Shown here: positions 1 to 58,178 of the stretch, one piece after another
Layout: each line of letters opens with the position of its first letter
Position numbering within the stretch: the first letter of the stretch is position 1
IMG/VR virus record: IMGVR_UViG_3300042695_002264
Location: 1 to 64,000 of that record
DNA from: a virus
Strand: one strand, 5' to 3'
Length of the DNA stretch: 64,000 nucleotides
The notes under the pieces: model-generated
Databases searched by the model: none
What the model saw: the letters and a program-made list of their open reading frames with translations, nothing else
What the model was told of the DNA's origin: nothing
Program-made: the position numbers and the translations under genes

Positions 1-189
1 TACAACACGCAACCGCAATCCGACGAATACGCGACCGAGCACGAGGAAGTGCGCGGCACGTTCGCCGCCGAGCCTGCCGTTGAGCAGGAGCCGCAACCCT
101 ATGATGGGTTTGAGGGGCAGTGGGCTGGGGATGGGTCGGGCTTCGACGACCTCGCAGACTGGGGCGAGCAGGAGGGCTGGGACACGTAA
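1..189 (+). CDS. partial small acidic protein (5' end outside window)
   Basis: Frame 1 open to TAA 187-189: YNTQPQSDEYATEHEE...GDGSGFDDLADWGEQEGWDT; very D/E-rich; shares a motif with 5617..5748. Confidence 0.7.
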   Translation, partial: YNTQPQSDEYATEHEEVRGTFAAEPAVEQEPQPYDGFEGQWAGDGSGFDDLADWGEQEGWDT

Positions 190-308
190 GAGTGTCATAA
201 ACTTTCTCCGAACGTTTCGATGCGTGTCTCCATGACGCGGGAATAAACGATGAGGAGACGAAGCGCCCGTTTAAACGGGCGTTTCAATTTGCTAAAATTC
301 AATGTTGC

Positions 309-385
309 GTAAACCCTTGATATTCAACAACTTACGCTGGCGCGCGGGGCGCGCGGCCGTAAGTCCTTGATAATTAACGACTTAC
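309..385. repeat. 77-bp element copy 1 (core inverted)
   Basis: gtaaacccttgatattcaacaacttac / gctggcgcgcggggcgcgcggcc / gtaagtccttgataattaacgacttac (27+23+27). Confidence 0.95.
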
Positions 386-523
386 GTAACGTCATCAAGA
401 GTGTCATAAAGAATGTCATAGCGCAAAATTCAAACGCTCGTTTGCCAAAACGTCAACAAAAATAGTTTCGCTAATCGCAAAAAAATATCTCGCTTTTCGC
501 GCGTCCTGTGCTATTCTGTATAC

Positions 524-706
524 ATGAGAAACAACAACAGAAGCTGGCGCGACGAAGAACGCGAAGCAACCCTCGACTACCCGCTAGGTGTGGATCGTGA
601 AGATCCCGCCTACCAGCAAAGCCCAGACGCTTACGAGCGTGAAATCGAGCGCCTTAATCGGCACGAAGGCTGGGAGCGTAATCGCGGTGGTTACTACCGC
701 CGATGA
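524..706 (+). CDS. small charged hypothetical early protein
   Basis: 60-aa ORF; ATG 6 nt after an extended -10 (TGCTATTCT). Confidence 0.75.
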   Translation: MRNNNRSWRDEEREATLDYPLGVDREDPAYQQSPDAYEREIERLNRHEGWERNRGGYYRR

Positions 707-714
707 AAAATCGC

Positions 715-743
715 TTGACTTTCAGCCCCATTTCACCGATACT
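715..743 (+). promoter_or_regulatory. sigma70-like promoter, leaderless-type
   Basis: TTGACT-17-GATACT, ATG 750 six nt downstream. Confidence 0.65.
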
Positions 744-749
744 TTCAAC

Positions 750-914
750 ATGACAGAAAACACCACAACTGGCTGGCCCGAAGTCTGGAACTTCGACGAA
801 CCCAAAGACGACAACCTCACGCCCGAACAAGCGTTCGACATCCTTTTCGGCTACGCCGAGGAGCGTCATCGCAACGACCCGTGCGCTCGTCCCGCCCCTA
901 AACCCAAACACTAA
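750..914 (+). CDS. small hypothetical protein (MTENTTTGWPEVWNFDE...)
   Basis: Internal ATG of track ORF 588..914, fits the promoter at 715-743. Confidence 0.7.
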   Translation: MTENTTTGWPEVWNFDEPKDDNLTPEQAFDILFGYAEERHRNDPCARPAPKPKH

Positions 915-918
915 CACT

Positions 919-1128
919 ATGACAAACACAGACGGCATCATCAAGTCGCTTGAAACTCTCATCAAGCATGAGAAAGCAATTCAGCGTCAAGAAAAAGAAA
1001 TTGAAAAATTAAAAGACATCATTGATGGCTCTTTGCAGACGATGCAGGGCCTTCTTGTGTTGAGCGCTGTTCTCTCAAAAGAGATTGAAAGCTTGCACAA
1101 TAATAAGCCTTCTTTTGGACTAAACTAA
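919..1128 (+). CDS. small coiled-coil hypothetical protein
   Basis: 69-aa ORF directly after the previous stop. Confidence 0.7.
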   Translation: MTNTDGIIKSLETLIKHEKAIQRQEKEIEKLKDIIDGSLQTMQGLLVLSAVLSKEIESLHNNKPSFGLN

Positions 1129-1281
1129 CATGAGCAAAATCATTATGACAATCGACACGCGACCGCTTGCGCGTGTCATAGAGCGCAGCGTCCGCAAGGC
1201 ATCTTGCCGCCCATCCTTCGCCATGCGTGTCAAGAAAAAATTCGCGCGCAAGGCAAAGTTTTTTCGCGGTTGGTCTGATCA

Positions 1282-1358
1282 GTAAAGCTTTGAATATCAA
1301 CGACTTGCGGCGGCGCGCCCCGCCGCGCGGCATAACCCATTGCAAATCAACGACTTGC
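1282..1358. repeat. 77-bp element copy 2
   Basis: gtaaagctttgaatatcaacgacttgc / ggcggcgcgccccgccgcgcggc / ataacccattgcaaatcaacgacttgc. Confidence 0.95.
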
Positions 1359-1369
1359 AATATATAGTA

Positions 1370-1386
1370 TTCAGGTAGCGTGCCAA
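1370..1386 (-). promoter_or_regulatory. sigma54-like -24/-12 motif
   Basis: TTGGCACGCTACCTGAA on - strand, at the fixed offset from the element. Confidence 0.55.
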
Positions 1387-1426
1387 TATTGGCGAATCTA
1401 TAAAAATAAAAAAATAAAAAAACCTA

Positions 1427-1455
1427 TTGACGAAAACATCAAACCGAGTTAGCAT
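1427..1455 (+). promoter_or_regulatory. sigma70-like promoter, leaderless-type
   Basis: TTGACG-17-TAGCAT, ATG 1462 six nt downstream; A-tracts upstream. Confidence 0.65.
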
Positions 1456-1461
1456 AAATGT

Positions 1462-1926
1462 ATGAAAAATAAAATTATAACAATCATAGTCACTGCATTG
1501 GTAACCGCAGCAGTTACTTTCGTTACTCTATCACTTACAGATAGCGAACCGCTGACCGACTGGGTAAAAATGGCGAAGTTAAGAATTAAAGGATGCTCTG
1601 ATCCCGAGGCGCACCTGAGCAACGCCAAGCGGATAAAGGGTTGGCTTACCGCAGTTGGAGAGCATGAGCCTGTTAGTGTGAGAATCAGAGAAGGTGTAGG
1701 CTTGCCGCCAGACCAGAGTTTGGCTCCTAAAGGGGTTAAACTCACTCCAACAGCTACAGAAATGTTCATTTTAGTTCGTTCTTCTGATTTTGAGAACAAT
1801 ATCCGTGAGATATACGAATTTGATCTCATGAAAATTATGGTGGATAAGGATGCAAGAAAACAATTAAGAGAACTTATTACCAAAACTAAAGCACAGAGCA
1901 ATGAGTTTGGTTTCGGTAGTAACTAA
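1462..1926 (+). CDS. hypothetical protein with N-terminal signal/membrane anchor
   Basis: 154 aa; MKNKIITIIVTALVTAAVTFVTL; stop lies inside element copy 3. Confidence 0.8.
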   Translation: MKNKIITIIVTALVTAAVTFVTLSLTDSEPLTDWVKMAKLRIKGCSDPEAHLSNAKRIKGWLTAVGEHEPVSVRIREGVGLPPDQSLAPKGVKLTPTATEMFILVRSSDFENNIREIYEFDLMKIMVDKDARKQLRELITKTKAQSNEFGFGSN

Positions 1927-1995
1927 CTGAAATTCAACAACTTGCAGAGCCAGATCGGGCCGCGCGGCGTAACTCCTTGATATTCAAAGACTTAC
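1919..1995. repeat. 77-bp element copy 3
   Basis: gtaactaactgaaattcaacaacttgc / agagccagatcgggccgcgcggc / gtaactccttgatattcaaagacttac. Confidence 0.9.
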
Positions 1996-2006
1996 GCAAA
2001 ACGCTA

Positions 2007-2023
2007 CGCAATAGCCATGCCAA
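2007..2023 (-). promoter_or_regulatory. sigma54 -24/-12 motif (canonical)
   Basis: TTGGCATGGCTATTGCG matches TGGCAYR-N4-TTGC. Confidence 0.65.
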
Positions 2024-2097
2024 GTTGCAGAAAAAAAATTTCACACAATCGCAAAAAAATCCCTTGCATTTTTGCGCGTCCGCGCTATATTGAAATC

Positions 2098-2613
2098 ATG
2101 AAAGAGAGAAAATCACTAAACGAAAAGCCTCTGACTTGCCTGTTCGTCGGCGTTACCCTCGCTTTGGTATCAGCAGGAGTTGCCATTTATGGGTTGCGGT
2201 TTGGGTTTGCGTCTATTGCCTTTTTGCTTGTTGCTGCTGCAATCTTAAATATCGCAGCGTGGTTTTTTGCCACCCCTGTCGTCTCTTTCGTTGGCGATTT
2301 TGTAGGAAAATTTTTTACTGGAAGTCAAAACTTTAGCAAGCCCCAGCCTGCTTACAGCCTGCCAGATGGTCTTGCCGCTACCGGACAAAACGCTTGCGCT
2401 ATCCTTGCCTACAATGAACTTGCAAAAAATCATCCCGAAGAAATCTTGCCTCATCTTCGCGTGATGAGAATATGGATTGAAAAAATGAATGACGTTGACG
2501 CTGCGGTTATGGCTTACAATCTCGCCTTGAAAAAAATTCGCGGACAAAAAAATCGCAACGAGTTTACAAAAATGGCAAAAAATAATTTCAGCAAATTCAT
2601 CAGCTTTGAATGA
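2098..2613 (+). CDS. two-TM membrane protein with TPR-like helical C-terminus
   Basis: ATG 2098 six nt after TATATT; two hydrophobic segments, then helical repeats (PQPAYS...AILAYNELAKNHPEE). Confidence 0.75.
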   Translation: MKERKSLNEKPLTCLFVGVTLALVSAGVAIYGLRFGFASIAFLLVAAAILNIAAWFFATPVVSFVGDFVGKFFTGSQNFSKPQPAYSLPDGLAATGQNACAILAYNELAKNHPEEILPHLRVMRIWIEKMNDVDAAVMAYNLALKKIRGQKNRNEFTKMAKNNFSKFISFE

Positions 2614-2679
2614 GTGTCATAGCAATGTCATAAACGCTCGGTCAAACGGGCGTTTTACTTTGCGCGAAACCAATTCTAT

Positions 2680-2756
2680 ATAAACCCTTGAAAATCAACG
2701 ACTTACGGCGGCGCGCCCCGCCGCGCGGCGTAACCCATTGCAAATCAACAACTTAC
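2680..2756. repeat. 77-bp element copy 4
   Basis: ataaacccttgaaaatcaacgacttac / ggcggcgcgccccgccgcgcggc / gtaacccattgcaaatcaacaacttac. Confidence 0.95.
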
Positions 2757-2767
2757 AACATACATCA

Positions 2768-2784
2768 TTCAGATAGCGTGCCAA
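2768..2784 (-). promoter_or_regulatory. sigma54-like -24/-12 motif
   Basis: TTGGCACGCTATCTGAA. Confidence 0.55.
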
Positions 2785-2866
2785 CTTTGCAGAGGGGCAA
2801 AAAATAAAAAAAATAAAAAACGAAAAAATCCCTTGCGTTTTTGCAGTCCTGTGCTATTCTTTAAGC

Positions 2867-3019
2867 ATGGAAAAGAAAATGACTCAATATGCGGACAAGC
2901 TCAACGCCTTCCGCGCTGGCGAAATCACCGAGGACGAATGGAAAGCGTTCTGTTTTGAGGCTCTCTCCGAGATTCTCGAAGACACGAAAGATGTCCTCAT
3001 CAGGCTGAAAAATGCTTGA
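2867..3019 (+). CDS. 50-aa hypothetical protein (below ORF-track cutoff)
   Basis: MEKKMTQYADKLNAFRAGEITEDEWKAFCFEALSEILEDTKDVLIRLKNA; ATG 6 nt after TGCTATTCT. Confidence 0.75.
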   Translation: MEKKMTQYADKLNAFRAGEITEDEWKAFCFEALSEILEDTKDVLIRLKNA

Positions 3020-3050
3020 CCCAATCGCAACAATCAAACATACTACGACC

Positions 3051-3227
3051 ATGAAACAAACACCACAAAAAGCCCAACTCTGGGCAGTCGGAAACAAAGT
3101 CTATCGCGTCATCCGCAACGAAGGCGACAAGACTCACGTTCATCATCACGGGCAAATGGCCCTGTTCTATACGCGCCATCTGAAAATGGCGACACCTTCA
3201 CAAGTTGCAGAATACTTGGGAAAATAG
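3051..3227 (+). CDS. small beta-rich hypothetical protein
   Basis: TTGACC(3016)-17-CATACT-6-ATG; resembles 9548..9718. Confidence 0.75.
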   Translation: MKQTPQKAQLWAVGNKVYRVIRNEGDKTHVHHHGQMALFYTRHLKMATPSQVAEYLGK

Positions 3228-3263
3228 TTTGACAATCACCACAAAACCTAACAGAATAACAAC

Positions 3264-3479
3264 ATGACAAAAAAACAATTCACCGCAATCGCTAACATCT
3301 TGGGAAAACGCTTGGCCGAAAAAGTCAAAGCACCCATCGGAGAATACGAAGTTGTCGAAGTCCTCGCGTTGGACTTGGCGAAATACTTCTCGACAGAAAA
3401 CCCTCGTTTCGACGAAGATCGCTTTCTGGAAGCTGTTTTTACTCACACCCCTAACATCCCTGTGGGATCATATAAATAA
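3264..3479 (+). CDS. small phage protein (MTKKQF..IA...NPRFD..RF..A type)
   Basis: TTGACA(3229)-17-CAGAAT-6-ATG; NPRFDEDRFLEA motif typical of small phage proteins. Confidence 0.8.
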   Translation: MTKKQFTAIANILGKRLAEKVKAPIGEYEVVEVLALDLAKYFSTENPRFDEDRFLEAVFTHTPNIPVGSYK

Positions 3480-3483
3480 TCAC

Positions 3484-3663
3484 ATGAAAAAATACATCAC
3501 ATTCGACCGCATTGCCTACGCAATGTCCCTCTCCACCTTCATCTTCATCGCCGTGACGCTTTGCGCTGCTTGCGTTGAATTGCAAAACAGAACCAGCAAG
3601 AACCAAAAGCAAATGCAGGAAGAAGTCCGCGCAATGTTTGCCCACATCGAGGCACCTCTATGA
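3484..3663 (+). CDS. small single-TM protein
   Basis: MKKYITFDRIAYAMSLSTFIFIAVTLCAA; ATGA overlap with the next gene. Confidence 0.7.
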   Translation: MKKYITFDRIAYAMSLSTFIFIAVTLCAACVELQNRTSKNQKQMQEEVRAMFAHIEAPL

Positions 3664-3860
3664 TTACCCCCAATATCCAAAAAGCTCTTGAGTCAAACGG
3701 AGTTCGTTTCTTTGCAAAAGACTTTCTCATGGAAGGTATGCGGAAAGACTGCGTTGACGCCGTGCATGATGCAAAACTCGTTTACGAATTGCTAAAAGAA
3801 CGCATGGAAAAAATGCTTGCAATCGAACCCGAAGACGAATACATTAAAGCCAATGAGTAA
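3660..3860 (+). CDS. hypothetical protein
   Basis: 66-aa ORF, translationally coupled. Confidence 0.7.
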   Translation: MITPNIQKALESNGVRFFAKDFLMEGMRKDCVDAVHDAKLVYELLKERMEKMLAIEPEDEYIKANE

Positions 3861-4041
3861 AGACCAAGTCAAAGCCGTGTGCGATTACTCGCATGATGTC
3901 ATAATGAAAATCAAAGCCGTGTTCGGATTCAAAAAGAAAAGTCCTTCGCTTCTTTGTCATAGTCTCGCGCACCTCAACACCGCGACATGGCTTGAGCGCG
4001 CGGTCTGCAACGGCACAATCATGGACTACAAGCCGCGATAA
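3853..4041 (+). CDS. hypothetical protein
   Basis: ATG overlaps the previous ORF end; stop 1 nt before element copy 5. Confidence 0.55.
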   Translation: MSKDQVKAVCDYSHDVIMKIKAVFGFKKKSPSLLCHSLAHLNTATWLERAVCNGTIMDYKPR

Positions 4042-4042
4042 C

Positions 4043-4119
4043 GTAAAGCGCTAATAATCAAGCACTTACGGCGGCGCGCCCCGCCGCGCAGCGTAAGTCG
4101 TTGAAAATCAATCACTTAG
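4043..4119. repeat. 77-bp element copy 5
   Basis: gtaaagcgctaataatcaagcacttac / ggcggcgcgccccgccgcgcagc / gtaagtcgttgaaaatcaatcacttag. Confidence 0.95.
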
Positions 4120-4130
4120 GCAAAAGCACT

Positions 4131-4147
4131 TTCATACAGTGTGCCAA
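4131..4147 (-). promoter_or_regulatory. sigma54-like -24/-12 motif
   Basis: TTGGCACACTGTATGAA. Confidence 0.5.
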
Positions 4148-4230
4148 GTCCGCTGTCAAGTAGAAAAAAAATATTTTTTTAATCGTAAAAAATTCCTTGC
4201 GTTTTTGGCATATTGTGGTATTCTTTAATT

Positions 4231-4470
4231 ATGAAAATCACCAAGCCCGACCTCTACGAAGCCCTCATCCAAGCGCGTGTCGCCTTATCGAAAGACATCC
4301 GCGAAACTTTGCGCGGTCGCCACCTCTCCTACGTTCAAGACCTCTCGCGGAAATCCATCCGCGAAAAAATCGCGGCCTATCGGTTGCTCTCCAACCTCTC
4401 CACGATCAACGCGGAAAGCTACTCGGACAACCGCTCTCTGCGTCACGTTAAAAAAGCTCTTGCCAAGTAA
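4231..4470 (+). CDS. hypothetical basic protein
   Basis: TTGCGT...TGGTATTCT-6-ATG. Confidence 0.75.
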   Translation: MKITKPDLYEALIQARVALSKDIRETLRGRHLSYVQDLSRKSIREKIAAYRLLSNLSTINAESYSDNRSLRHVKKALAK

Positions 4471-4495
4471 CGCAATCTCTGACAAAATCACCACC

Positions 4496-5179
4496 ATGAA
4501 ACTACTAAGCACCAACAATACCAAAATCAAAAAAGGCGAAAAGCTCGGCTGGCGCACTTACGGCCTTTCACTTTCACCCGCTGGCAAAAGTGGAAAACAA
4601 TTCTGTCCGCATCGCTCGGCTGGCTGTGAGTTTGCTTGTCTCGACACTTCGGGCATGGGCATCTTCTCAAACGTCCAAGACGCACGCCTTGCAAAGTCGC
4701 GTTTCTTCATCGACAACCGCAACGAGTTTCTCGCTCAGTTGCATAAAGAATTGCACAATGCCGAAAAGTGGAGCGCAAAAAATAATACGCCTGTGGCCGT
4801 GCGTCCGAACGTGCTTTCTGATCTGCCTTTCCATAAGCTGATCGACATGGCGCGCTTTCCGTCAATTCAGTTTTACGATTACACGCCGAACCTTCAACGC
4901 ATGATGCAGTTTCTAAACGGCGAGTTGCCTAAAAATTATCACCTGACCTTCTCGCGCAAAGAGGACAATCAGCATCGTGTCCACGCTGTTGTTGCCGCTG
5001 GCGGTAACGTGGCCGCTGTCTTTAGTGAGTTGCCCGAAACCTACCTCGGAAAGCCTGTCATAAACGGCGACGAAAGCGACTTGCGTTTTCTCGACGCGCA
5101 GGGCGTGATCGTTGGACTCAAAGCAAAAGGCAAAGCTCTCAAAGATCAATCTGGCTTTGTGGTGCAAGTTGGCGTATAA
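4496..5179 (+). CDS. GP88-like phage protein (Cys-cluster)
   Basis: MKLLSTNNTKIKK...CPHRSAGCEFACL...VRPNVLSD...QFYDYT...NYHLTFS...GDESDLRFLD...IVGLKAKG, typical of the GP88 family; probable start ATG 4496. Confidence 0.8.
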   Translation: MKLLSTNNTKIKKGEKLGWRTYGLSLSPAGKSGKQFCPHRSAGCEFACLDTSGMGIFSNVQDARLAKSRFFIDNRNEFLAQLHKELHNAEKWSAKNNTPVAVRPNVLSDLPFHKLIDMARFPSIQFYDYTPNLQRMMQFLNGELPKNYHLTFSRKEDNQHRVHAVVAAGGNVAAVFSELPETYLGKPVINGDESDLRFLDAQGVIVGLKAKGKALKDQSGFVVQVGV

Positions 5180-5250
5180 TGAAAACCTATGGAAATCATA
5201 ATCCTTCTTGCTGGCATTATCGGTGGCGCATTACTAATAAATAAAAAATT

Positions 5251-5409
5251 ATGACACTAAACCTAATCGCACGAAAAAACTTGTTTCGCTTGTCTGAATA
5301 CTTTTTCAGCCTTGCGGTATGGTGGGAACGCGCTGGCGTTATGACACTCCAAAAACTTTTCTTTATGGGGTGGCAAAAATGCCTTGACACACGAGACAAA
5401 TTACGGTGA
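5251..5409 (+). CDS. 52-aa hypothetical protein
   Basis: MTLNLIARKNLFRLSEYFFSLAVWWERAG...; stop 1 nt before element copy 6. Confidence 0.5.
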   Translation: MTLNLIARKNLFRLSEYFFSLAVWWERAGVMTLQKLFFMGWQKCLDTRDKLR

Positions 5410-5410
5410 C

Positions 5411-5487
5411 ATAACCTACTGAAAATCAACGACTTACGGCGGCGCGCCCCGCCGCGCGGCGTAAGTGCTTGAAAATCAACGACTTAT
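5411..5487. repeat. 77-bp element copy 6
   Basis: ataacctactgaaaatcaacgacttac / ggcggcgcgccccgccgcgcggc / gtaagtgcttgaaaatcaacgacttat. Confidence 0.95.
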
Positions 5488-5498
5488 ACAAAATGCCA

Positions 5499-5515
5499 TT
5501 CAAGAAGCATGCCAA
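5499..5515 (-). promoter_or_regulatory. sigma54-like -24/-12 motif
   Basis: TTGGCATGCTTCTTGAA. Confidence 0.55.
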
Positions 5516-5616
5516 CTCACAGAAAAAACGCTCGTTTGAATTTTCGTCAACAAAAATACTTTTCAGAATCGCAAAAAATCCATTGCATCGTGCCGTGCCT
5601 GTGCTACTCTTTACCT

Positions 5617-5748
5617 ATGCAAGCGAACACCATCACCGACGACTTCAACACGCAAACCCAAAGCGACGAGTTTGCCTCCGAATTTGAGGCTTGGCTCGAC
5701 GCGCAGGAACTGAAATACTGGCAGGAAATCGACGCTCGCGGAAATTAA
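5617..5748 (+). CDS. 43-aa acidic protein
   Basis: TTGCAT...TGCTACTCT-6-ATG; MQANTITDDFNTQTQSDEFASEFEAWLDAQE. Confidence 0.75.
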   Translation: MQANTITDDFNTQTQSDEFASEFEAWLDAQELKYWQEIDARGN

Positions 5749-5752
5749 TTTT

Positions 5753-5989
5753 ATGACAAACACAAACCCACTACACGGCTACCTCTCCGACTGCTGCGGA
5801 GCCGAACACGACATCAACGCCGAACACCACATTCTCAACGAGAGTGTGCGTGGAGGATGCTCCGCTTGCGGACACTACTCGGAGTTTTCCCCTGTGGAGG
5901 AAAACGTCCGGCACAATCAACGCATCAGCCTCTCCGCTCTCAATGCGTTCGTGCCAGACGAGTTGAACTCTTACGAGCAGCCGTGGTAA
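5753..5989 (+). CDS. small Zn-ribbon-like protein
   Basis: SDCCGA...CSACG motifs. Confidence 0.75.
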   Translation: MTNTNPLHGYLSDCCGAEHDINAEHHILNESVRGGCSACGHYSEFSPVEENVRHNQRISLSALNAFVPDELNSYEQPW

Positions 5990-6032
5990 ATTGTTTGACA
6001 CTCTCAACCCTAACAACTAACATCATCAATCT

Positions 6033-6527
6033 ATGAACAAAGCAAAAGTCCTAATCAGTCCTTACGGAAACGGCATCGCTGTCGGCCTTGAGGGAAACAA
6101 AGATCAAATCGAACGCGAATATAATCGCTTTTTTAATTGGGGCGCAGCTGGTGCTGGCGCGAATGTCGAACGTGGCAACGGCGACTCTGAAATCCAGCAC
6201 GGAGAACTTGGCGACTCTTACCTCCACTATGTCGGAGAAGGGTTTGCCTACTTCCTGTCATCGGAAAAAGATATGCTTCGCGCTATGACATATGAACACT
6301 TGACCAAGTGGCAAGATAGCGAAACGTCAGCGCAATATAAAACAAAGCCACGCAATCACAAGAGGGATTCGGGCAAGGTATTCCGCGAACACGCGCAGAT
6401 CGCAGCGCAAGACGAATATAATGAAATCGAACGCGAGAACTTCATGCTCTACCAGAAAGCTCCCGCATACATCTTCCGCGAGCTTGATGGCGGCGCGCCG
6501 TCTTGGAGAAGTGAAACGGAGGACTAA
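6033..6527 (+). CDS. hypothetical protein
   Basis: 164-aa ORF with TTGACA-17-TAACAT upstream. Confidence 0.8.
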   Translation: MNKAKVLISPYGNGIAVGLEGNKDQIEREYNRFFNWGAAGAGANVERGNGDSEIQHGELGDSYLHYVGEGFAYFLSSEKDMLRAMTYEHLTKWQDSETSAQYKTKPRNHKRDSGKVFREHAQIAAQDEYNEIERENFMLYQKAPAYIFRELDGGAPSWRSETED

Positions 6528-6531
6528 TATA

Positions 6532-6801
6532 ATGAAAAAAATACTTGTCACCGTTAAGCAAATTATAGAAGTCCCAGACTCTTTCAAAATTACAAGTTTT
6601 ACAGAGCCAGGAGATGTAGCGTTTGATTATATAAAAATAGGAAAAAAATTAACTGCGCCAGATATAACATGGTTTGACTATGACAAAGTTTCTGGCGTTG
6701 GAAGCGAGAGCGACGAACTCGTTGAGCGTCTCGCCCCTGCAATAGTTGACTACTCCTTGCAAGAATTTTCTTTCGATGAAGATCCTAACGTAAGTTGTTG
6801 A
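6532..6801 (+). CDS. acidic hypothetical protein
   Basis: MKKILVTVKQIIEVPD...; TGA lies inside element copy 7. Confidence 0.7.
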   Translation: MKKILVTVKQIIEVPDSFKITSFTEPGDVAFDYIKIGKKLTAPDITWFDYDKVSGVGSESDELVERLAPAIVDYSLQEFSFDEDPNVSC

Positions 6802-6866
6802 AAATCAACGACTTGCGGCCCCGCGCCCCGCGCCCATGTGTAAGTGCTTGATACTGAACAACTTAT
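6790..6866. repeat. 77-bp element copy 7
   Basis: gtaagttgttgaaaatcaacgacttgc / ggccccgcgccccgcgcccatgt / gtaagtgcttgatactgaacaacttat. Confidence 0.9.
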
Positions 6867-7107
6867 ACATAATACCATAACAAGCCCATCTGATAATAAT
6901 AATGCATTTTTATTCATATGATAGTGTTTTATCTATTTAGCTATTTGACTAATAACTATTTCCTATTTATCTATTTCACTTTTAGCTATTTCGCTATTTG
7001 TCGAAGTATTTAAGAAATTTCGACAGGTTTTTTTGTTATGTCGAAAGGATCGACATGAGAGAAAAACATTTGACTGATGTGTAAATTGTGATAGAGTTGG
7101 AGGTAGA

Positions 7108-7181
7108 GGAGTTTTAGCTCAATTGGTTAGAGCGCTGCCCTGTCACGGCAGAGGTTGCGGGTTCGAGCCCCGTAAACTCCG
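7108..7181 (+). tRNA. tRNA-Asp(GTC)
   Basis: Acceptor ggagttt/aaactcc; anticodon arm ctgcc-ctGTCac-ggcag; GGTTCGAGCCC. Confidence 0.95.
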
Positions 7182-7189
7182 TTTTTTTT

Positions 7190-7264
7190 GGGAAGGTAGC
7201 TCAAAGGTAGAGCAGCGCCCTTTTAAGGCGTTGGTTCTGGGTTCGATCCCCAGTCTTCCCACCA
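7190..7264 (+). tRNA. tRNA-Lys(TTT)
   Basis: Acceptor gggaagg/tcttccc; loop ctTTTaa; encoded CCA. Confidence 0.95.
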
Positions 7265-7330
7265 AAAAAATTTCAAAAAATAATCAAAATACCCGTTGAC
7301 AAAACCATCAAAAAACCCTATTCTTAAAAC

Positions 7331-7594
7331 ATGAAAGCACTACTAAATAAAGTCAAACTCGCAATCGCTGACTCCAAAATCGGTCAGTTCACCAACCCTG
7401 TGTATCGCTTGAAGTATCGGCCTTACACCGAACAAGGAAACAATGAGGTTTATACCTACTTCGTTTCTCGACCCTTCGACTTGTTCGCTAACGGAATCGT
7501 GGCTTACTGCTTCGGCAAAGGTGTTCGCAGGTTCCGCTACGATGAAATCGTTGAGCGGGAAGTTGTATCGCTCTTTGGAAAATCTGTGGCGTAA
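7331..7594 (+). CDS. small protein, possibly WYL/Sm-like fold
   Basis: TTGACA(7296)-17-TATTCT-6-ATG; C-terminal AYCF..GVRRFRYDEI resembles the WYL signature R.FR.DRI. Confidence 0.65.
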   Translation: MKALLNKVKLAIADSKIGQFTNPVYRLKYRPYTEQGNNEVYTYFVSRPFDLFANGIVAYCFGKGVRRFRYDEIVEREVVSLFGKSVA

Positions 7595-7799
7595 AGCCAC
7601 GAATAAACAATCTGCCCGACAATCAATATCGGAAATAAAAGAAGCAAAGTTAACCGGATCTTTGCGGTGGTCGCTTAATGCGAAATATAAAACATCCGCC
7701 GAGGCAGATAAACATTTACAAGTAGCCCGAAAAAATATCGGAAACAAAAGCAGGACAGAATAGCGTCTGTCATCATATACAAAACGCACCGAGGCTTGA

Positions 7800-8345
7800 A
7801 ATATGGGAGTCGCCCCGACCCCAAAGATGTAATGCATGACATCTCGGGGCAACTTTAAATATCTACGAGTTCATACCAGAGGGAACTGGTGCCCACGCGT
7901 AGAGAATAAACTCCCAAACTTTTAGTTCTTTTACATCTTGAGGGCTGACTCCTCCCAGAAGGGGGAGAGCGCGCAGCAGAAAACCAGAGGAATTAACCTC
8001 CAGCCCACAACTCTCCCAAGCTCTGGCGGATACATCTCCGTTCAACTTGTGAGCTAGTCGTCGAAAGACGATTCGATGTCGGTGCCGCCAGAAGGCACGG
8101 AGTCATAGGCAGGGAGTTCTGGCCTCCCTGTCAACACTTTCTGTCATAAAAAAAAATCGCCGTGGAGTAACGGTCCACTAGTCAGAACCTACTGATGAAT
8201 AAGAGTAAGCTGATCGTGACAGCAATAAAGGGGATGGTCACCACCGACCCGCGAGCGGCTCGCGTTAGCTGGTTAGTGCTGCAAAGCATTAGCCCCCATT
8301 TGATCCGTAAGGAGACGATGATGGGAAGCATGGCAGCCGACACTT
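7800..8345 (+). ncRNA. candidate structured ncRNA(s), family unknown
   Basis: No credible ORF; many nested helices and GNRA loops (see findings); lies in a tRNA-bearing unit. Confidence 0.55.
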
Positions 8346-8347
8346 TC

Positions 8348-8418
8348 GCACCTTTAGCCAAGTGGTAAGGCAGGAGTCTGCAACACTCTTATCGCTGGTT
8401 CGAATCCAGCAAGGTGCT
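8348..8418 (+). tRNA. tRNA-Cys(GCA)
   Basis: Acceptor gcacctt/aaggtgc; loop ctGCAac; U discriminator; 3' end overlaps element copy 8. Confidence 0.9.
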
Positions 8419-8485
8419 GATTATCAACGAGTTACAGCTACACGCCCCGCCGCGCCGCGTAAATGCTTGAATATCAACGCTTTAT
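8409..8485. repeat. 77-bp element copy 8
   Basis: gcaaggtgctgattatcaacgagttac / agctacacgccccgccgcgccgc / gtaaatgcttgaatatcaacgctttat. Confidence 0.9.
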
Positions 8486-8537
8486 AAAGTATAAATATCC
8501 AGTTGACAAAATTTTCAAATAGGGCTATTCTTACAGC

Positions 8538-9263
8538 ATGATCACCACACAACTACCTCTACCCATGCGTTGCTCTTCTGATGCTCTCGTTCAGCCAGAG
8601 CTTGAACTCAAGCCTACGCGCAATCCTTCCTACTCTCGCGTCGAACGCTTCTTTGATTCCTTGGATCGTTCGCGTGTTGTGTCATACACCGACTACTGGA
8701 ATTCCATTGCGCCCAAAGGAACACAAGATGCAATGTTGCGCTGGCTCTTTGCTTTTATGTCAGTCCATACGAGTTGGAAGTCCAACGTCAACGGCTACAA
8801 CGCAATCAAAACAATGGATTGGTGGCACGATCAACAAGTCCTCCTTAACAAGCTCAAGCATAGTGGCGTTGGCTTGCACAACAATCGCACGAAATTTGTC
8901 TGGCAGTTCCAGAAAAACTTTTGGGGTGATGTCAAAAAGTATTCTCACGCTCCTACGGATTGGCGCGGTCATCGTGACGAGTTGGTTAGCGAAGTGCTTG
9001 GTCTTGGCAAAGCTAAAGTCTCTTTCTCGTTGGAGATGATTCATCCCGACAAGTGCGAAGTTGTCTGCATGGATACTCATATGTTCCAAGCCTACTCGCT
9101 CGACCAAACCAAAGACGAAAAACATTACGATAACATCGAAGCCCATTGGATTTCAATGTGCCGTGCGTATGACGTTCCCTGCTACATTGCGCGTTGCCTT
9201 TACTGGGATGCGATTCAAGACAAGCAGGATTCGCGCTACTGGTCGTATGTTTTTGAAGAATAA
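8538..9263 (+). CDS. HhH-GPD superfamily DNA glycosylase-like protein (Ogg2-like)
   Basis: HhH motif VLGLGKAKVSF followed by VCMDTHM; promoter TTGACA(8503)-17-TATTCT. Confidence 0.65.
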   Translation: MITTQLPLPMRCSSDALVQPELELKPTRNPSYSRVERFFDSLDRSRVVSYTDYWNSIAPKGTQDAMLRWLFAFMSVHTSWKSNVNGYNAIKTMDWWHDQQVLLNKLKHSGVGLHNNRTKFVWQFQKNFWGDVKKYSHAPTDWRGHRDELVSEVLGLGKAKVSFSLEMIHPDKCEVVCMDTHMFQAYSLDQTKDEKHYDNIEAHWISMCRAYDVPCYIARCLYWDAIQDKQDSRYWSYVFEE

Positions 9264-9301
9264 TCCTTGCAATCCATTTCAAAATCCAATACATTAAGAA
9301 C

Positions 9302-9526
9302 ATGAACAAAACCACTACCATCATCACCCGCCGTTCACCCTTCACCCAAAAAGTTAACAGGATGGAGATTCCTCTCTCCCATTCGGAGTTTGAGAAGAGG
9401 ACAATTCTTTGGCAGTCTGGGATGCTCATTCAAGATGCGTTCCCCATGCTGTCCGCTGATGAGCGCGAGTTCATCAAAACTGGTATCACTCCCGAAGAGT
9501 GGGAACAGATGTTTGGAGAAGACTAA
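9302..9526 (+). CDS. conserved small phage protein
   Basis: IQDAFPMLSADEREFIKTGITPEEW motif common in phages; own promoter. Confidence 0.85.
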   Translation: MNKTTTIITRRSPFTQKVNRMEIPLSHSEFEKRTILWQSGMLIQDAFPMLSADEREFIKTGITPEEWEQMFGED

Positions 9527-9547
9527 TATAGAAAGGAGGAAAATATA

Positions 9548-9718
9548 ATGAAACTAATCGAAGGTGCTATTTATAACTACAAAGGGGAAGCTGTTCGTTT
9601 CCGTAAACAGATTGGCGTTGTTGCTTTCTTGTCGCGTCGTAAGCGAGGTTCGTTTGTTGGACGAACTGATTTGCTCAAGAAGGCAAATAAAAAGCAGGTC
9701 GATAAATTCCTCAAATAA
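9548..9718 (+). CDS. 56-aa basic protein
   Basis: Strong SD AAAGGAGG at 9532; MKLIEGAIYNYKGEAVRFRKQ...; stop 2 nt before element copy 9. Confidence 0.75.
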   Translation: MKLIEGAIYNYKGEAVRFRKQIGVVAFLSRRKRGSFVGRTDLLKKANKKQVDKFLK

Positions 9719-9720
9719 GC

Positions 9721-9797
9721 GTAAAGCTCTCGTAATCATGGGGTTACGAGGGCGCGCCCCGCCGCGCTGCGTAAGTCGTTGGAAATCAACCACTTGC
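9721..9797. repeat. 77-bp element copy 9
   Basis: gtaaagctctcgtaatcatggggttac / gagggcgcgccccgccgcgctgc / gtaagtcgttggaaatcaaccacttgc. Confidence 0.9.
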
Positions 9798-9808
9798 GCA
9801 TTTGTCCT

Positions 9809-9825
9809 TTCAGGAACCGTGCCAA
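9809..9825 (-). promoter_or_regulatory. sigma54-like -24/-12 motif
   Basis: TTGGCACGGTTCCTGAA. Confidence 0.55.
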
Positions 9826-9902
9826 TTCCCAGAAAAATATTTTCAATCAAATTGCAAAAAAAGGTTTGCTCGCTCATACAAAAACACTTATTCTTATGAA
9901 GT

Positions 9903-10682
9903 ATGAGAAACCTAAACCTAACACTGCACTGCGGCGGTCACGCCGTGGAATCCACCCAAGTTCAGCAAACTCCCACTCCCGCACCCACGGATTCGTGGAT
10001 GCCCATCCCGCACTTCGCGCTCATCGAGCGTCTGCGCGAGATCGTCGGTAGTGCTGGCTTGACCATCACGCAAGAGGCGCACGCCCTTGCTCGCAACGGC
10101 CTTCGCTACTTCGGATTGTTCCAAGTGGCGGGAATCCCCAACTTCTCACAGGAGTCCAACATCGGGACTGTGATCGGCTTGCGCAACTCGCACGACAAGT
10201 CGTTTCCCGCTGGCATCAACGCTGGTTCCGCGCCTTTCGTGTGCGACAACCTCGCGTTTCACAACGAGATCAAAATCGCTCGTCGTCACACCAAGTTCAT
10301 CATGCGCGACCTTCCTTCGCTCCTTTCGGGCGCATTCGGAAAGTTGCTCAACACTTGGGGCAACAACGCCAAGCGTATCGAGGCTTACCAGTCTTGCGCG
10401 CTCAAGGACGTTCAAGCGCACGACCTCATCGCCAAGGCTTACCGCTGTGGCGCAGTGAGCAAGACCGCTCTGGCGGACGTTCTCGACCAGTGGCACAACC
10501 CCGAACACGCCGAGTGGTCGGAGCAGAAGAACCTCTGGGGTCTTCACAACTCCTTCACCAACGTCATGCGCGGAAACGTGCTCGCGTTGCCCAAGCGTAG
10601 CGATGCGCTCCACGGACTTCTCGACCCTATCGCAGGCGTGGCGCTGGCGAGGGCAGAAGACGCCGAGGCCATCACGGTCTAA
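9903..10682 (+). CDS. DUF932-family phage/plasmid protein
   Basis: Signature LRNSHDKS...FVCDNL...RHT. Confidence 0.85.
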   Translation: MRNLNLTLHCGGHAVESTQVQQTPTPAPTDSWMPIPHFALIERLREIVGSAGLTITQEAHALARNGLRYFGLFQVAGIPNFSQESNIGTVIGLRNSHDKSFPAGINAGSAPFVCDNLAFHNEIKIARRHTKFIMRDLPSLLSGAFGKLLNTWGNNAKRIEAYQSCALKDVQAHDLIAKAYRCGAVSKTALADVLDQWHNPEHAEWSEQKNLWGLHNSFTNVMRGNVLALPKRSDALHGLLDPIAGVALARAEDAEAITV

Positions 10683-10698
10683 ATTCTGAGACGCACAA

Positions 10699-10736
10699 AA
10701 GGGCTTGGCAGGGCAACCTGTCAAGTCTTTTTTTTG
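10699..10736 (+). terminator. intrinsic terminator
   Basis: gggcttggcagg-gcaa-cctgtcaagtct followed by a T-run. Confidence 0.8.
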
Positions 10737-10753
10737 CAAAAATTCATTGTTGT

Positions 10754-10830
10754 GTAAGTCATTGAATATCAAGCACTTGCGCCGCCGCGCCCAGCTGCCC
10801 AGCGTAAGTCTTTGATTGTCAAGGGTTTAC
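10754..10830. repeat. 77-bp element copy 10
   Basis: gtaagtcattgaatatcaagcacttgc / gccgccgcgcccagctgcccagc / gtaagtctttgattgtcaagggtttac. Confidence 0.9.
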
Positions 10831-10893
10831 ATTTTAATGCAAAAAATATCTTGACCGCACACGCAAAAGACTTTATTGTCATTATATCACCAC

Positions 10894-11220
10894 ATGAAAC
10901 TATCAGAAATTCAAGCCATTGCAAACCTCACAGCAAAATTCCTCGGACTCCCAATCAAACCCAAGGCCGAAATTACTACCAATAAACGAGGCCGCGCCTA
11001 CACCACGCAGGGCCGCTTCAATATTCCAGAGTGGGCCTTCAAGCACGGAGAAAAGTTTGTCATATACTATGTTGTGCATGAAGTCTGCCACTTTTACGGA
11101 GGAACATTAGATCACGGCAAACTCTTTTGTCAAGTCGAAGACCGCGCATTAAAATTTTGGGGGCTTTACATTCAACGCAAAAAAGTTTATCCTAATCCAC
11201 AATCAATCTACAAACTATGA
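10894..11220 (+). CDS. SprT/YgjP-like zincin metallopeptidase
   Basis: YYVVHEVCH...DHGKLF. Confidence 0.75.
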   Translation: MKLSEIQAIANLTAKFLGLPIKPKAEITTNKRGRAYTTQGRFNIPEWAFKHGEKFVIYYVVHEVCHFYGGTLDHGKLFCQVEDRALKFWGLYIQRKKVYPNPQSIYKL

Positions 11221-11465
11221 GCAAAAATACCTGCCCTGCTGATTACGATGGCGAAATGCTTGTTATCGGTGGCTATGTAAAATACGATGGAAAGACTTGG
11301 GAAGTCCTTGACTACGAAGATTCCGAACAGCCATACTTTGATGATAACTACACGGAACATAGTATTCTTTTATTGGCTTGCCGCTCGCAAGAGGAAGACA
11401 ATATTTGGATACCAGATTATGAGGTAGAGCAAACTGAATATCAGCAATTGTGTTTTGAACTATGA
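11217..11465 (+). CDS. acidic hypothetical protein
   Basis: ATGA-coupled 82-aa ORF. Confidence 0.7.
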   Translation: MSKNTCPADYDGEMLVIGGYVKYDGKTWEVLDYEDSEQPYFDDNYTEHSILLLACRSQEEDNIWIPDYEVEQTEYQQLCFEL

Positions 11466-11544
11466 AAAATATCGTTCTATTTGTCGCTCTACCTATCACT
11501 ATTTGTGTCTGGTCGTTCACTATTTATGGAGTAATTAAATTTTT

Positions 11545-11617
11545 GGGGTGGTAGCTCAATGGTTAGAGCGTGCGGCTCATAATCGCTTGGTTGTCGGTTC
11601 GAATCCGACCCGCCCCA
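11545..11617 (+). tRNA. tRNA with CAT anticodon (Ile2 or elongator Met)
   Basis: Acceptor ggggtgg/ccgcccc; loop ctCATaa; last base is the first base of element copy 11. Confidence 0.9.
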
Positions 11618-11693
11618 CATCTATTTGAAAATCAAGCACTTACAGATGAGTGCCCCGCCGCGCCGCGTAAGTCGTTGATATTCAATGGCTTAC
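11617..11693. repeat. 77-bp element copy 11
   Basis: acatctatttgaaaatcaagcacttac / agatgagtgccccgccgcgccgc / gtaagtcgttgatattcaatggcttac. Confidence 0.9.
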
Positions 11694-11736
11694 AAAAACA
11701 CTTGACACCAATCGCAACCTGTGATACATTTAGAGG

Positions 11737-11901
11737 ATGAACACTACTATTGCATCCTGTCGTGAACAAATCCAAGAGGACTTGATTTGCTTGCTTGAAG
11801 CTGCGAATAATCTTGGCCTCAAAGAACATCTTGAAGAAGTCACTACGCTGGCCTGTAAAATTGTGGTTGACAACTTCAAAAAACTTGAGAAGATAAGCTA
11901 A
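11737..11901 (+). CDS. 54-aa hypothetical protein
   Basis: TTGACA(11702)-17-TACATT-6-ATG; MNTTIASCREQIQEDLICLLE. Confidence 0.7.
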   Translation: MNTTIASCREQIQEDLICLLEAANNLGLKEHLEEVTTLACKIVVDNFKKLEKIS

Positions 11902-12164
11902 TGAACGACTACAAACTACCCAAAGACGCCTACTCTGCTGCTCGCTATGACGAGTTACACTTTGCTGTTGCCCACTATGGCACAGCCATGCACCGAAACC
12001 TTTGGGACTTGCTTGTTGACGCTGGCTTGAGCAAGCGACAAATCTTTTCCCAATACATGAAGGTTCTTCGTGTGACTACGGCTGTAAATAAAGACATTCT
12101 CTATTGTGTAGGGACTGGTAATTTTTCAATCAAACCTGTTGACAAAAAGAGCAAAACCCTATAA
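11901..12164 (+). CDS. hypothetical protein
   Basis: TAATG-coupled 87-aa ORF. Confidence 0.7.
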   Translation: MNDYKLPKDAYSAARYDELHFAVAHYGTAMHRNLWDLLVDAGLSKRQIFSQYMKVLRVTTAVNKDILYCVGTGNFSIKPVDKKSKTL

Positions 12165-12172
12165 TATCAAAA

Positions 12173-13042
12173 ATGATGAAAACGCTAAACGCACTAATCA
12201 AAACCGACGAGTCCATCACCGCAGTTCTTGATGGAGTTCCCAAGACGATGAGTTGTAACCATCCGTCTTTCACCGAGGCGATCACTTGCCTCGCTACTGG
12301 AGACTACGAAACCCTCGACACCCTGTTCGATGTTTCCGAGTCTATCACCCGCAAGTTTAATGCCGATAATGTCGGCGGTGTGGAGATCACCGATGGCGTG
12401 ATCTACTACCAAGGTGAACCTGTCCACAACTATGTCGTTGATCGTATCTTCGACTTCATGGACGAGGGCTTGCCGTTTGAGCCGCTTGCCAAGTTCCTTA
12501 ACAAACTCATGGCGAATCCTTCTCGCCGTGCGGTTGAGGAATTGTATAAGTTCCTTGAACACAAGCATCTTCCGATCTGTCAAGATGGCGACTTCCTTGC
12601 CTACAAGAGTGTTCGTCAAGACTACATGGATCACCATAGCGGCAAGTTCTTCAATGGTGTTGGTGAGGTCTTGGAAATGCCCCGCAACGCTGTCTGTGAC
12701 GATGCCGATGTGGGTTGCTCCTATGGCTTCCATGCTGGTAGCCATGCGTATGCCAGCACTTTTGGTGGCGGCGACTCTCGCCTTGTGATCGTCAAGATCA
12801 ATCCTGCCGATGTTGTGTCGGTTCCGAAAGATTGCGACTGCCAGAAGTTGCGGACTGCTCGCTACGAGGTTGTCAAAGACTTCGATGGAGTCTATAAGAA
12901 ACCTCTCAACACGGAGTTCAATTCCTACGATGAGGACTACGATGACGAGGGCTACGAAGATGAAGATTATGGTTGCACGGATAAAAATTGCAACTATCAT
13001 AATGTGAGGGATAGCAAGGGTCGCTTCATGCGGAAGCGGTAG
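12173..13042 (+). CDS. rIIB: rIIB-like protein
   Basis: AYKSV..DY.D.HSGKF.N.VG..LEMPR..V....CSYGFHAGS..YA..F....VKINPADVVSVP.D..QKLR..RYEV. Confidence 0.9.
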   Translation: MMKTLNALIKTDESITAVLDGVPKTMSCNHPSFTEAITCLATGDYETLDTLFDVSESITRKFNADNVGGVEITDGVIYYQGEPVHNYVVDRIFDFMDEGLPFEPLAKFLNKLMANPSRRAVEELYKFLEHKHLPICQDGDFLAYKSVRQDYMDHHSGKFFNGVGEVLEMPRNAVCDDADVGCSYGFHAGSHAYASTFGGGDSRLVIVKINPADVVSVPKDCDCQKLRTARYEVVKDFDGVYKKPLNTEFNSYDEDYDDEGYEDEDYGCTDKNCNYHNVRDSKGRFMRKR

Positions 13043-13058
13043 TCGGTGGTGCGACAAA

Positions 13059-13098
13059 AGGGGGTGGGGCTTGTGGTGGGCCTCACCCCCAACTTTTT
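13059..13098 (+). terminator. intrinsic terminator
   Basis: gggggtggggctt/gggcctcaccccc hairpin followed by a T-run. Confidence 0.7.
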
Positions 13099-13116
13099 GC
13101 TCTTGTCTTGTTTGTT

Positions 13117-13193
13117 GTAAGTGGTTAATACTCAAGCACTTGCAATCGCGCGCCCCGCCGCGCCGCGTAAGTCGTTGGCGTTCAACGTGTTAT
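13117..13193. repeat. 77-bp element copy 12
   Basis: gtaagtggttaatactcaagcacttgc / aatcgcgcgccccgccgcgccgc / gtaagtcgttggcgttcaacgtgttat. Confidence 0.9.
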
Positions 13194-13264
13194 GATTTTG
13201 TGAAAAAAATCGCTTGCCATCCCACTCAAATACCACTATTCTGATTACTCAACCTACTACTACA

Positions 13265-15511: not shown

Positions 15512-15533
15512 TTGTTAGTGGTGTAGTGGTGGG

Positions 15534-15571
15534 TGCGGGGCGTGCCGAGTGGTGCGCCCCGCATTTTTTTT
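15534..15571 (+). terminator. intrinsic terminator
   Basis: tgcggggcgtgcc-gagt-ggtgcgccccgca followed by T8. Confidence 0.85.
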
Positions 15572-15581
15572 AGATTAAAAT

Positions 15582-15658
15582 GTATCCCCTTGAAAATCAA
15601 CGACTTACAACGCGGCGGCGGGCGCGCTCGCGTAAGTCCTTCATAATCAACAACTTAC
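15582..15658. repeat. 77-bp element copy 13 (core inverted; last copy)
   Basis: gtatccccttgaaaatcaacgacttac / aacgcggcggcgggcgcgctcgc / gtaagtccttcataatcaacaacttac. Confidence 0.9.
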
Positions 15659-15781
15659 GAATAAAATAGATTAAAAATGTAATATATAATAACTCATTAT
15701 TATTAATACTATGATAGGTCTACTTTCTTATATCTTATTCTTGACATTAGTCTATATTGGTGTATTATATCTAATGGGAAA

Positions 15782-15853
15782 GTCCTCGTAGTGAAGCGGT
15801 TATCACAGTTCCCTTTCACGGAACTATCACGGGTTCGAATCCCGTCGAGGATG
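15782..15853 (+). tRNA. tRNA-Glu(TTC)
   Basis: Acceptor gtcctcg/cgaggat; anticodon arm gttcc-ctTTCac-ggaac. Confidence 0.9.
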
Positions 15854-15905
15854 CATATTGCTATTTGGCTAGTGGCTATTTCGCAAATATGGTGTTCACA
15901 AATAT

Positions 15906-15996
15906 GGGTAGATGGCTGAGTTGGTCTAAGGCGCTCGACTTGAAATCGAGAGTGGGGGAAACTTCACCGTGGGTTCGAATCCTACTCTACCCGCCA
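15906..15996 (+). tRNA. tRNA-Ser(TGA)
   Basis: Anticodon arm ctcga-ctTGAaa-tcgag; long variable arm; GCCA end. Confidence 0.95.
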
Positions 15997-16013
15997 TTTC
16001 TTCTGTATAAACT

Positions 16014-58109: not shown

Positions 58110-58178
58110 TAAGATTAGCACCTCCTTTCATATACTGTATATTACAGCAATTTAGGTGCCAATCAAGTTACAATTTTG

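Follow-up and report, generated by a model that had tools for sequence, protein, structure and literature searches.

A sigma54-type promoter motif at a fixed offset from a repeated 77-bp element and directed against early transcription in an uncultured phage

To our knowledge, sigma54 promoters have been seen as enhancer-dependent switches of bacterial genes and are barely documented in phages. In enterobacteria, bacterial interspersed mosaic elements (BIMEs) and repetitive IHF-binding palindromic (RIP) elements combine repetitive extragenic palindromes (REPs) with an IHF site and form repeated extragenic units at gene ends. The sigma54 promoter consensus is YTGGCACG-N4-TTGCW, as in Salmonella sites (PMC3844500). 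Moreover, sigma54 binds many non-promoter sites and represses by occupancy (PMC4551910), and non-promoter and intragenic sigma54 sites, often antisense, have been described in E. coli and Salmonella (PMC4591121, PMC3844500). As regards phages, a sigma54-like promoter has been described in Pseudomonas phage YuA, and the conserved antisense promoter P001 in or near the early region of LUZ19 was proposed to stop read-through into early genes (PMC10914365). T4-type phages carry promoter early stem-loops (PeSLs), which are repeated cassettes of a stem-loop and an early sigma70 promoter (PMC2839356, PMC4122927). Here, a stretch of 64,000 nucleotides (the window), the first 64 kb of the 170,518-bp phage record IMGVR_UViG_3300042695_002264 (complete according to CheckV), was analysed with regard to a sigma54-like motif that recurs beside a 77-bp quasi-palindromic element and is directed back into it.

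The element was mapped with an nhmmer model, which placed 14 copies in the genome, starting at positions 309, 1282, 1919, 2680, 4043, 5411, 6790, 8409, 9721, 10754, 11617, 13117, 15582 and 169689; the preliminary description had counted 13 and lacked the copy at 169689-169764. Motif sites were scored with a position weight matrix (PWM) of 16 positions derived from 29 intergenic Salmonella sites supported by chromatin immunoprecipitation (ChIP; PMC3844500, Table 3). The six element copies that are followed by the motif, and the motif sites themselves, are as follows.

1282..1358, plus strand: element copy 2, two palindromes, each with the IHF consensus WATCAANNNNTTR, around a 23-bp GC core
1919..1995, plus strand: element copy 3
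2680..2756, plus strand: element copy 4
4043..4119, plus strand: element copy 5
5411..5487, plus strand: element copy 6
9721..9797, plus strand: element copy 9
1370..1386, minus strand: site 1, TTGGCACGCTACCTGAA; predicted +1 at 1359; PWM score 15.5
2007..2023, minus strand: site 2, TTGGCATGGCTATTGCG; the sole copy in this genome with the consensus TTGC at -12; predicted +1 at 1996
2768..2784, minus strand: site 3, TTGGCACGCTATCTGAA; predicted +1 at 2757; PWM score 16.3
4131..4147, minus strand: site 4, TTGGCACACTGTATGAA; the weakest, PWM score 12.5; plus-strand TGTCAAG at +12 from TGCCAA
5499..5515, minus strand: site 5, TTGGCATGCTTCTTGAA; predicted +1 at 5488; PWM score 15.8
9809..9825, minus strand: site 6, TTGGCACGGTTCCTGAA; predicted +1 at 9798; PWM score 15.8

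In each of these six of the 14 copies, whose last bases were placed by nhmmer at 1358, 1995, 2756, 4119, 5487 and 9797, the plus-strand hexamer TGCCAA starts 23 nt after the end of the element, at 1381, 2018, 2779, 4142, 5510 and 9820, so that the offset, all six coordinates and the six minus-strand 17-mer readings of the preliminary description were reproduced. Relatives were collected by scanning IMG/VR with the GC core of the element. Of the 24 loci so obtained, 21 contain copies of the element and represent at least 14 related phage contigs; the other three are unrelated GC-rich matches. TGCCAA occurs within 60 nt past the element in 45 of 100 unique copies, spread over 15 phage contigs including the phage itself, and in all 45 it stands at the identical offset; conservation of the offset among relatives had been named in advance as a check and was borne out. 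An orthologue of site 6 is present in the relatives L002, L003, L017, L022 and L028. The hexamer as such is not enriched in the window (61 occurrences against 49.5 expected), and the non-random part is the fixed offset.

The 22-nt linker between element and motif is saturated with substitutions at positions 5-12, and its length is constant, without an indel in the 45 copies, whereas sequence and length 3' of the motif diverge with many indels. From TGCCAA to the next plus-strand -35 box the distance is 46, 46, 54, 55, 73 and 46 nt in the six cases of this genome. Because the linker is constant in length and the distance to the -35 box is variable, the register of the motif is set by the element and not by the next promoter. 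The motif is intergenic and was found nowhere else in the genome; a genome scan detected none before middle or late genes, and a second copy was found neither on the other side of the element nor on the plus strand. A lone plus-strand TTGGCAC in the relative L020 is an arm of a terminator hairpin. Since 14 or more contigs of related phages preserve the arrangement, the register-locked motif is, as judged by its conservation, a real and selected signal. A chance origin was ruled out by the offset lock, the PWM scores and simulations.

On the minus strand, the consensus of the 45 copies is A(G/C)TTGGCA(C/T)G-(G/C)(C/T)(A/T)(C/T)-(C/T)TG(C/A). A sigma54 promoter is recognised in sequence by GG at -24 and G(C) at -12, separated by one helical turn, within YTGGCACG-N4-TTGCW; the pattern TTGGCAYG-N4-YTG is found with this spacing in all 45 copies. 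Neither the T at -14 nor the G at -13 varies, and G at -20 is present in 42, none of these positions having been used for site selection. Geometry and sequence of the motif thus fit the -24/-12 consensus, and the predicted +1 is the base flanking the element, with the IHF-like sites downstream of the motif, as the preliminary description had proposed; its reading of the -12 region, TGAA in five sites of this genome and TTGCG in one (2007-2023), was also correct. The PWM scores of the 45 copies range from 12.5 to 21.6 with a median of 17.1 (maximum possible 23.9), while motif-less copies reach at most -1.1 at the motif offset and at most 8.9 anywhere within 70 nt. The motif is therefore all-or-none, either intact or wholly absent, and no decayed intermediates occur. 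In the phage genome its sites occupy five of the eight top-scoring places among 341,000 positions, site 2 being the highest in the 170-kb genome (18.1), and scores of at least 15 were observed 10 times, compared with 2.4 +/- 1.5 times in Markov simulations. Going by sequence, the sites conform to what defines a sigma54 promoter, with -12 as the exception.

The element consists of two 27-bp palindromes, GTAA-N4-TTGA-N3-TCAA-N4-TTAC, which lie 50 bp apart with a 23-bp GC-rich core between them, and as a whole it reads nearly the same on both strands. An alignment of 93 copies, taken from the phage and its relatives, shows hardly any variation in the outer and inner tetramers; the four pairs of the inner stem are of the Watson-Crick type in no more than about 25-55% of the copies, and in a wobble-asymmetry test the excess of G-T over A-C is of opposite sign in the two halves. 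By its appearance this conservation pattern is that of a protein site on DNA and not of an RNA hairpin. The IHF consensus WATCAANNNNTTR is matched at 9/9 positions in 61 of the 93 left and 33 of the 93 right sites, and at 8/9 or more in 90 and 70 of 93, respectively; these are predicted IHF sites. In some copies (e.g. 336-358 and 15609-15631) the GC core, element columns 28-50, is flipped, with GGGG in place of CCCC, and the flanking palindromes keep their orientation. The preliminary description had considered that the element might be transcribed as an antisense small RNA; a structured antisense RNA is not favoured because RNA-type covariation was found on neither strand and the inner stem positions are mostly unpaired.

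All motif sites in this genome lie in the early region (bases 1-16,000), which is transcribed from the plus strand. Its genes are small and are preceded by promoters of the sigma70 type, TTGNNN-16/17-(TGn)TATTCT, with 6-8 nt between the end of the promoter and the ATG. All 14 element copies precede such a promoter or a tRNA unit, and the sites lie opposite to the strand of all early genes. Downstream of the sites on the minus strand there is only the element and, behind it, the upstream gene, whose 3' end is entered in the antisense direction. The promoters of the following units are represented by these features.

2833..2869, plus strand: sigma70 promoter of the next unit (example), TTGCGT-16-TGC TATTCT-6-ATG, leaderless; back to back with site 3
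Starts at 1427, 2064, 4197, 5583 and 9866, plus strand: equivalent -35 boxes, at variable distance from TGCCAA

An intrinsic terminator is found nearby in 6 of the 45 motif copies versus 17 of 53 motif-less ones (Fisher p=0.03, the copies not being independent). Around the -35 box of UP-rich early promoters there is an inverted repeat GCAAAAA-N11-TTTTTGC (2051-2075, 2823-2846 and 4185-4208, plus strand), which may be an operator.

The motif is read here, with a probability of roughly 0.45, as a promoter-type binding site for the sigma54 (RpoN) holoenzyme of the host. Beyond the match in sequence we infer the whole mechanism. The holoenzyme would bind the 17-bp motif with the -12 position held 12 nt from the edge of the element, and would for the most part stay there in the closed-complex state, in head-on orientation to the RNA polymerase that comes in from the early unit upstream. 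A closed complex is to be expected because no activator gene was found in the phage and because the -12/-11 bases are non-consensus in most copies (TGAA or TGCG). Together with protein on the two IHF-consensus palindromes, it would insulate the immediate-early units, which are mostly without intrinsic terminators, and occasional or conditional firing would produce a short antisense RNA from the element edge. Given binding, roadblock and antisense promoter have about even odds; the closed-complex roadblock is favoured in view of the lack of an activator, the lack of a downstream gene, the head-on placement and the lower number of intrinsic terminators. Binding to the variant sites is plausible since a natural Salmonella site with TGA at -12, STM0649.S, is enriched in ChIP (ratio 6.9; PMC3844500). 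The wider proposal, that large aquatic phages have built a -12-degenerate sigma54 site into a repeated insulator module head-on to early transcription, in a register fixed to the base beside a double palindrome of IHF type, where a closed complex or activator-independent firing ends or silences units, is considered doubtful.

Several observations weigh against sigma54 as the reader of the motif. We know of no sigma54 architecture in which IHF-like sites lie 3' of the +1. Neither rpoN nor a true bacterial enhancer-binding protein was found in the phage genome or in five relatives, where the family PF00158 matched only RuvB-like AAA+ proteins without the GAFTGA motif; an activator could, however, be supplied by the host. 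On the minus strand there is no gene or conserved open reading frame 3' of the sites, and no enhancer-like site or repeat was recognised upstream of them. In addition, TGTCAAG stands exactly 12 nt past TGCCAA in about 13 of the 45 copies, which fits tandem half-sites. The base at -12 is C in 21 and A in 24 of the 45 copies, never G or T, and after a C at -12 the base at -11 is usually G and rarely A or T; C is found at -12 in 96% of known sigma54 promoters (PMC4551910). Sites with a variant -12 would thus be atypical, possibly with a weakened lock.

Furthermore, RpoN may be missing from the group to which the host belongs; leaderless starts and a scarcity of Shine-Dalgarno (SD) sequences would also fit such groups. 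A scan of bacterial genomes found just two short early-region phage fragments, binned in metagenome-assembled genomes of Thiobacillus (G007) and Verrucomicrobia (G006). An RpoN DNA-binding domain is encoded in both, but contigs of 1-2 kb are not binned reliably. The consensus sigma70 promoters with A-tracts in their upstream regions, the IHF consensus and the 11-bp-spaced TGTCATA pairs described below would, taken together, fit a host of proteobacterial type. No HU/IHF gene was found in the phage. Megablast of the early region against cultured phages returned no near match and protein matches are distant only; a virion protein resembles cyanophage proteins at 41%, and the nearest bacterial DUF932 homologues (49%) carry the names Udaeobacter and Planctomycetaceae and are located in integrated elements.

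It is possible, if on balance unlikely, that the motif is instead the site of another DNA-binding protein, either an early or middle regulator of the phage or a response regulator of the host, which would recognise direct half-sites TG(C/T)CAAG at a spacing of 12 bp and would work with the palindrome-bound protein, for example in switching off or tuning the neighbouring early promoters; the likeness to sigma54 sites would then be coincidental. At plus-strand positions 14-15 there is an invariant CA, 12 nt ahead of the one in TGCCAA, and a subfamily including copy 5 of this phage has TGTCAAG at exactly 12 nt in spite of differing bases between, so that a single protein reading three half-sites spaced by 12 bp is, from the sequence, possible. 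The TGTCAAG(C) at +12 occurs at 4142-4160 (plus strand) in this phage and also in L001, L009, L010, L011, L012, L016, L020 and L023. Motif-less elements, too, can be followed by TGTCAAG on its own, some 50 nt ahead of the -35 box, and the missing sigma54 machinery of the phage is in keeping with this alternative. Tandem TGTCATA is present nearby, in direct-repeat pairs with an exact 11-nt period at 402-419 and 2615-2632 (plus strand); this period is that of proteobacterial PhoB boxes. At copy 1 the pair stands 17 nt past the element end, in the place that the sigma54-like motif takes in other copies; at copy 4 it is found on the upstream side of the element, and an intrinsic terminator follows directly. 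On the other hand, the upstream half-site (minus-strand YTGAA or YTGCG) copies TGCCAAG poorly, TTGGCAYG together with G at -20 exceeds a 7-bp half-site and suits the -24 element of sigma54 in its extended form, the TGTCAAG at +12 is confined to the minority of copies given above, and no candidate protein was found. Because the sigma54 -24 and -12 blocks are in themselves similar to a direct repeat, sequence hardly tells the two readings apart.

A rather improbable explanation regards the motif as a functionless passenger in a mobile terminator-promoter cassette, consisting of element, linker and upstream promoter region, which has been spread by recombination between early units in the manner of PeSLs (PMC2839356, PMC4122927). 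Modules 3' of the element are indeed shuffled among copies and phages, and mutual information between adjacent columns of the linker points to a few paralogous lineages. A complete motif (AGCAGGAAGCGTGCCAAG) without an element ahead of it follows immediately after a stop codon in the relative L010 (10243-10259), where TGCCAAGT provides the 5' arm of a hairpin that resembles a terminator and has a T-run after it. However, a passenger does not account for a linker that is saturated in its middle yet free of indels in 45 copies beside an indel-rich flank, nor for motif positions that stay invariant amid varying neighbours without decayed intermediates.

It is clearly improbable that, at the 3' ends of early transcripts, the motif serves within the plus-strand RNA as a signal for processing, termination or antitermination. 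The motif does lie just past the 3' end of each early unit, and TTGGCA and TGTCAAGC are the two arms of true plus-strand terminator hairpins in the relatives L028 (about 120-165) and L020 (5262-5300), so that these strings play several roles in the phage group; elsewhere TGTCAAGC precedes a T-run (3' arm or tail of a terminator) or the A-rich region upstream of the next promoter. Yet RNAalifold found no consensus structure for linker and motif on either strand, no U-tract follows the motif, and the bipartite conservation with a variable spacer of 4-5 nt is as in a protein site on DNA. An RNA structure or known RNA family was rejected in general: there was no Rfam family match other than the tRNAs reported, the alignment-based folding was empty, single-copy folding gave z = -1.5, and the wobble-asymmetry test was negative.

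A minus-strand sigma70-type promoter with TTGGCA as its -35 box is highly improbable and largely refuted. A consensus scan does give TTGGCA-16-TATATT (1386-1359) and TTGGCA-16-TATGTT (2784-2757), but a minimal TAnnnT occurs at 16-nt spacing in only 5 of the 45 copies and at 17 nt in none, and the invariant TG at -14/-13 is left unexplained.

Recognition by a sigma factor of the phage was rejected as well, given that the motif is absent before the middle and late genes, which bear TGTAAT-type boxes. Two proteins of the sigma70 family are encoded in the phage genome, and their region 2 genes (whole-record coordinates) are probably those of the factors for the TGTAAT/GTGTAA late boxes.

About 153409-153549, minus strand: sigma70 region 2 gene
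About 113815-113919, minus strand: sigma70 region 2 gene

The early region has about 47% G+C compared with about 34% elsewhere, and ends with rIIA and rIIB. The break in G+C between 1-16000 and 16001-64000 is sharp and falls together with a strand switch and with the point where the element array ends. The 14th element copy (169689-169764), close to the right-hand end of the record, is followed by TGTCAAG and an early-type promoter, because of which the early region probably extends across the record ends.

Additionally, one site of sense orientation was found outside the array.

58146..58161, minus strand: sigma54-consensus site TGGCAC-N5-TTGC, sense-oriented, overlapping a TGTAAT late box

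This site is located after the endolysin gene and before a strong SD sequence and a gene for a small hydrophobic peptide, is the only other intergenic PWM match that faces a gene, and is kept in four of five relatives. Within a conserved block of 60 nt almost only the five spacer bases vary (CTAAA, CTTTT, CATTT, CGTTT and TTAAA), and such spacer-only variation is, in sequence terms, the signature of a bipartite sigma54 site. Because it overlaps the late box, it could instead be a late promoter with an upstream site. The peptide genes downstream differ among the phages (L032-L035, L013 and L001), and the near-palindrome TAACAATATTGTAAC lies about 10 nt upstream of the site.

Among the described systems, BIME and RIP elements differ from the phage element in being chromosomal, in having the IHF site between the palindromes, which is the opposite order, and in lacking a sigma54-like box. 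The phage cassettes resemble PeSLs in architecture only, in that they bracket small early open reading frames, run in one direction and are shuffled as modules; there is no sequence relation, the 77 bp of the phage element form a double palindrome that carries IHF-consensus sites and does not maintain its inner stems, and PeSLs are without a sigma54-like box on the opposite strand. The YuA promoter is a single sense promoter and P001 of LUZ19 is read by the phage RNA polymerase, neither being repeated nor tied to a repeat. No described counterpart was found for a repeated, register-locked antisense site of the predicted sigma54 type beside IHF-type palindromes. With bacterial sigma54 promoters the phage sites share the TTGGCAYG block at -24, the spacing of one turn to the invariant TG, the Y at -15 and PWM scores within the range of real sites; unlike them, they have A at -12 in about half of the copies, are repeated in cassettes without a downstream gene, enhancer or phage activator, and have IHF-like sites downstream of the +1 instead of upstream. 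If the motif belongs to another protein, the operator of an uncharacterised regulator in an uncultured phage group has been defined. If the sigma54 reading is true, the phage would make use of the unusual stability of closed complexes formed with sigma54, or of leaky firing from promoters with a degenerate -12, in partitioning its early units, and sigma54 would serve as a structural or antisense device and not as a gene activator. In this respect the sites resemble the non-promoter sites of E. coli and Salmonella, which also drive no obvious gene and at which holoenzyme held in a stable closed complex could get in the way of sigma70 transcription. Those sites are scattered on the chromosome, whereas the phage sites are held at one offset from a repeat in the early region and are conserved across phages, so that six sites of known register would offer a test bed for the function of non-promoter sigma54 sites, of which ChIP studies detected many in E. 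coli and Salmonella.

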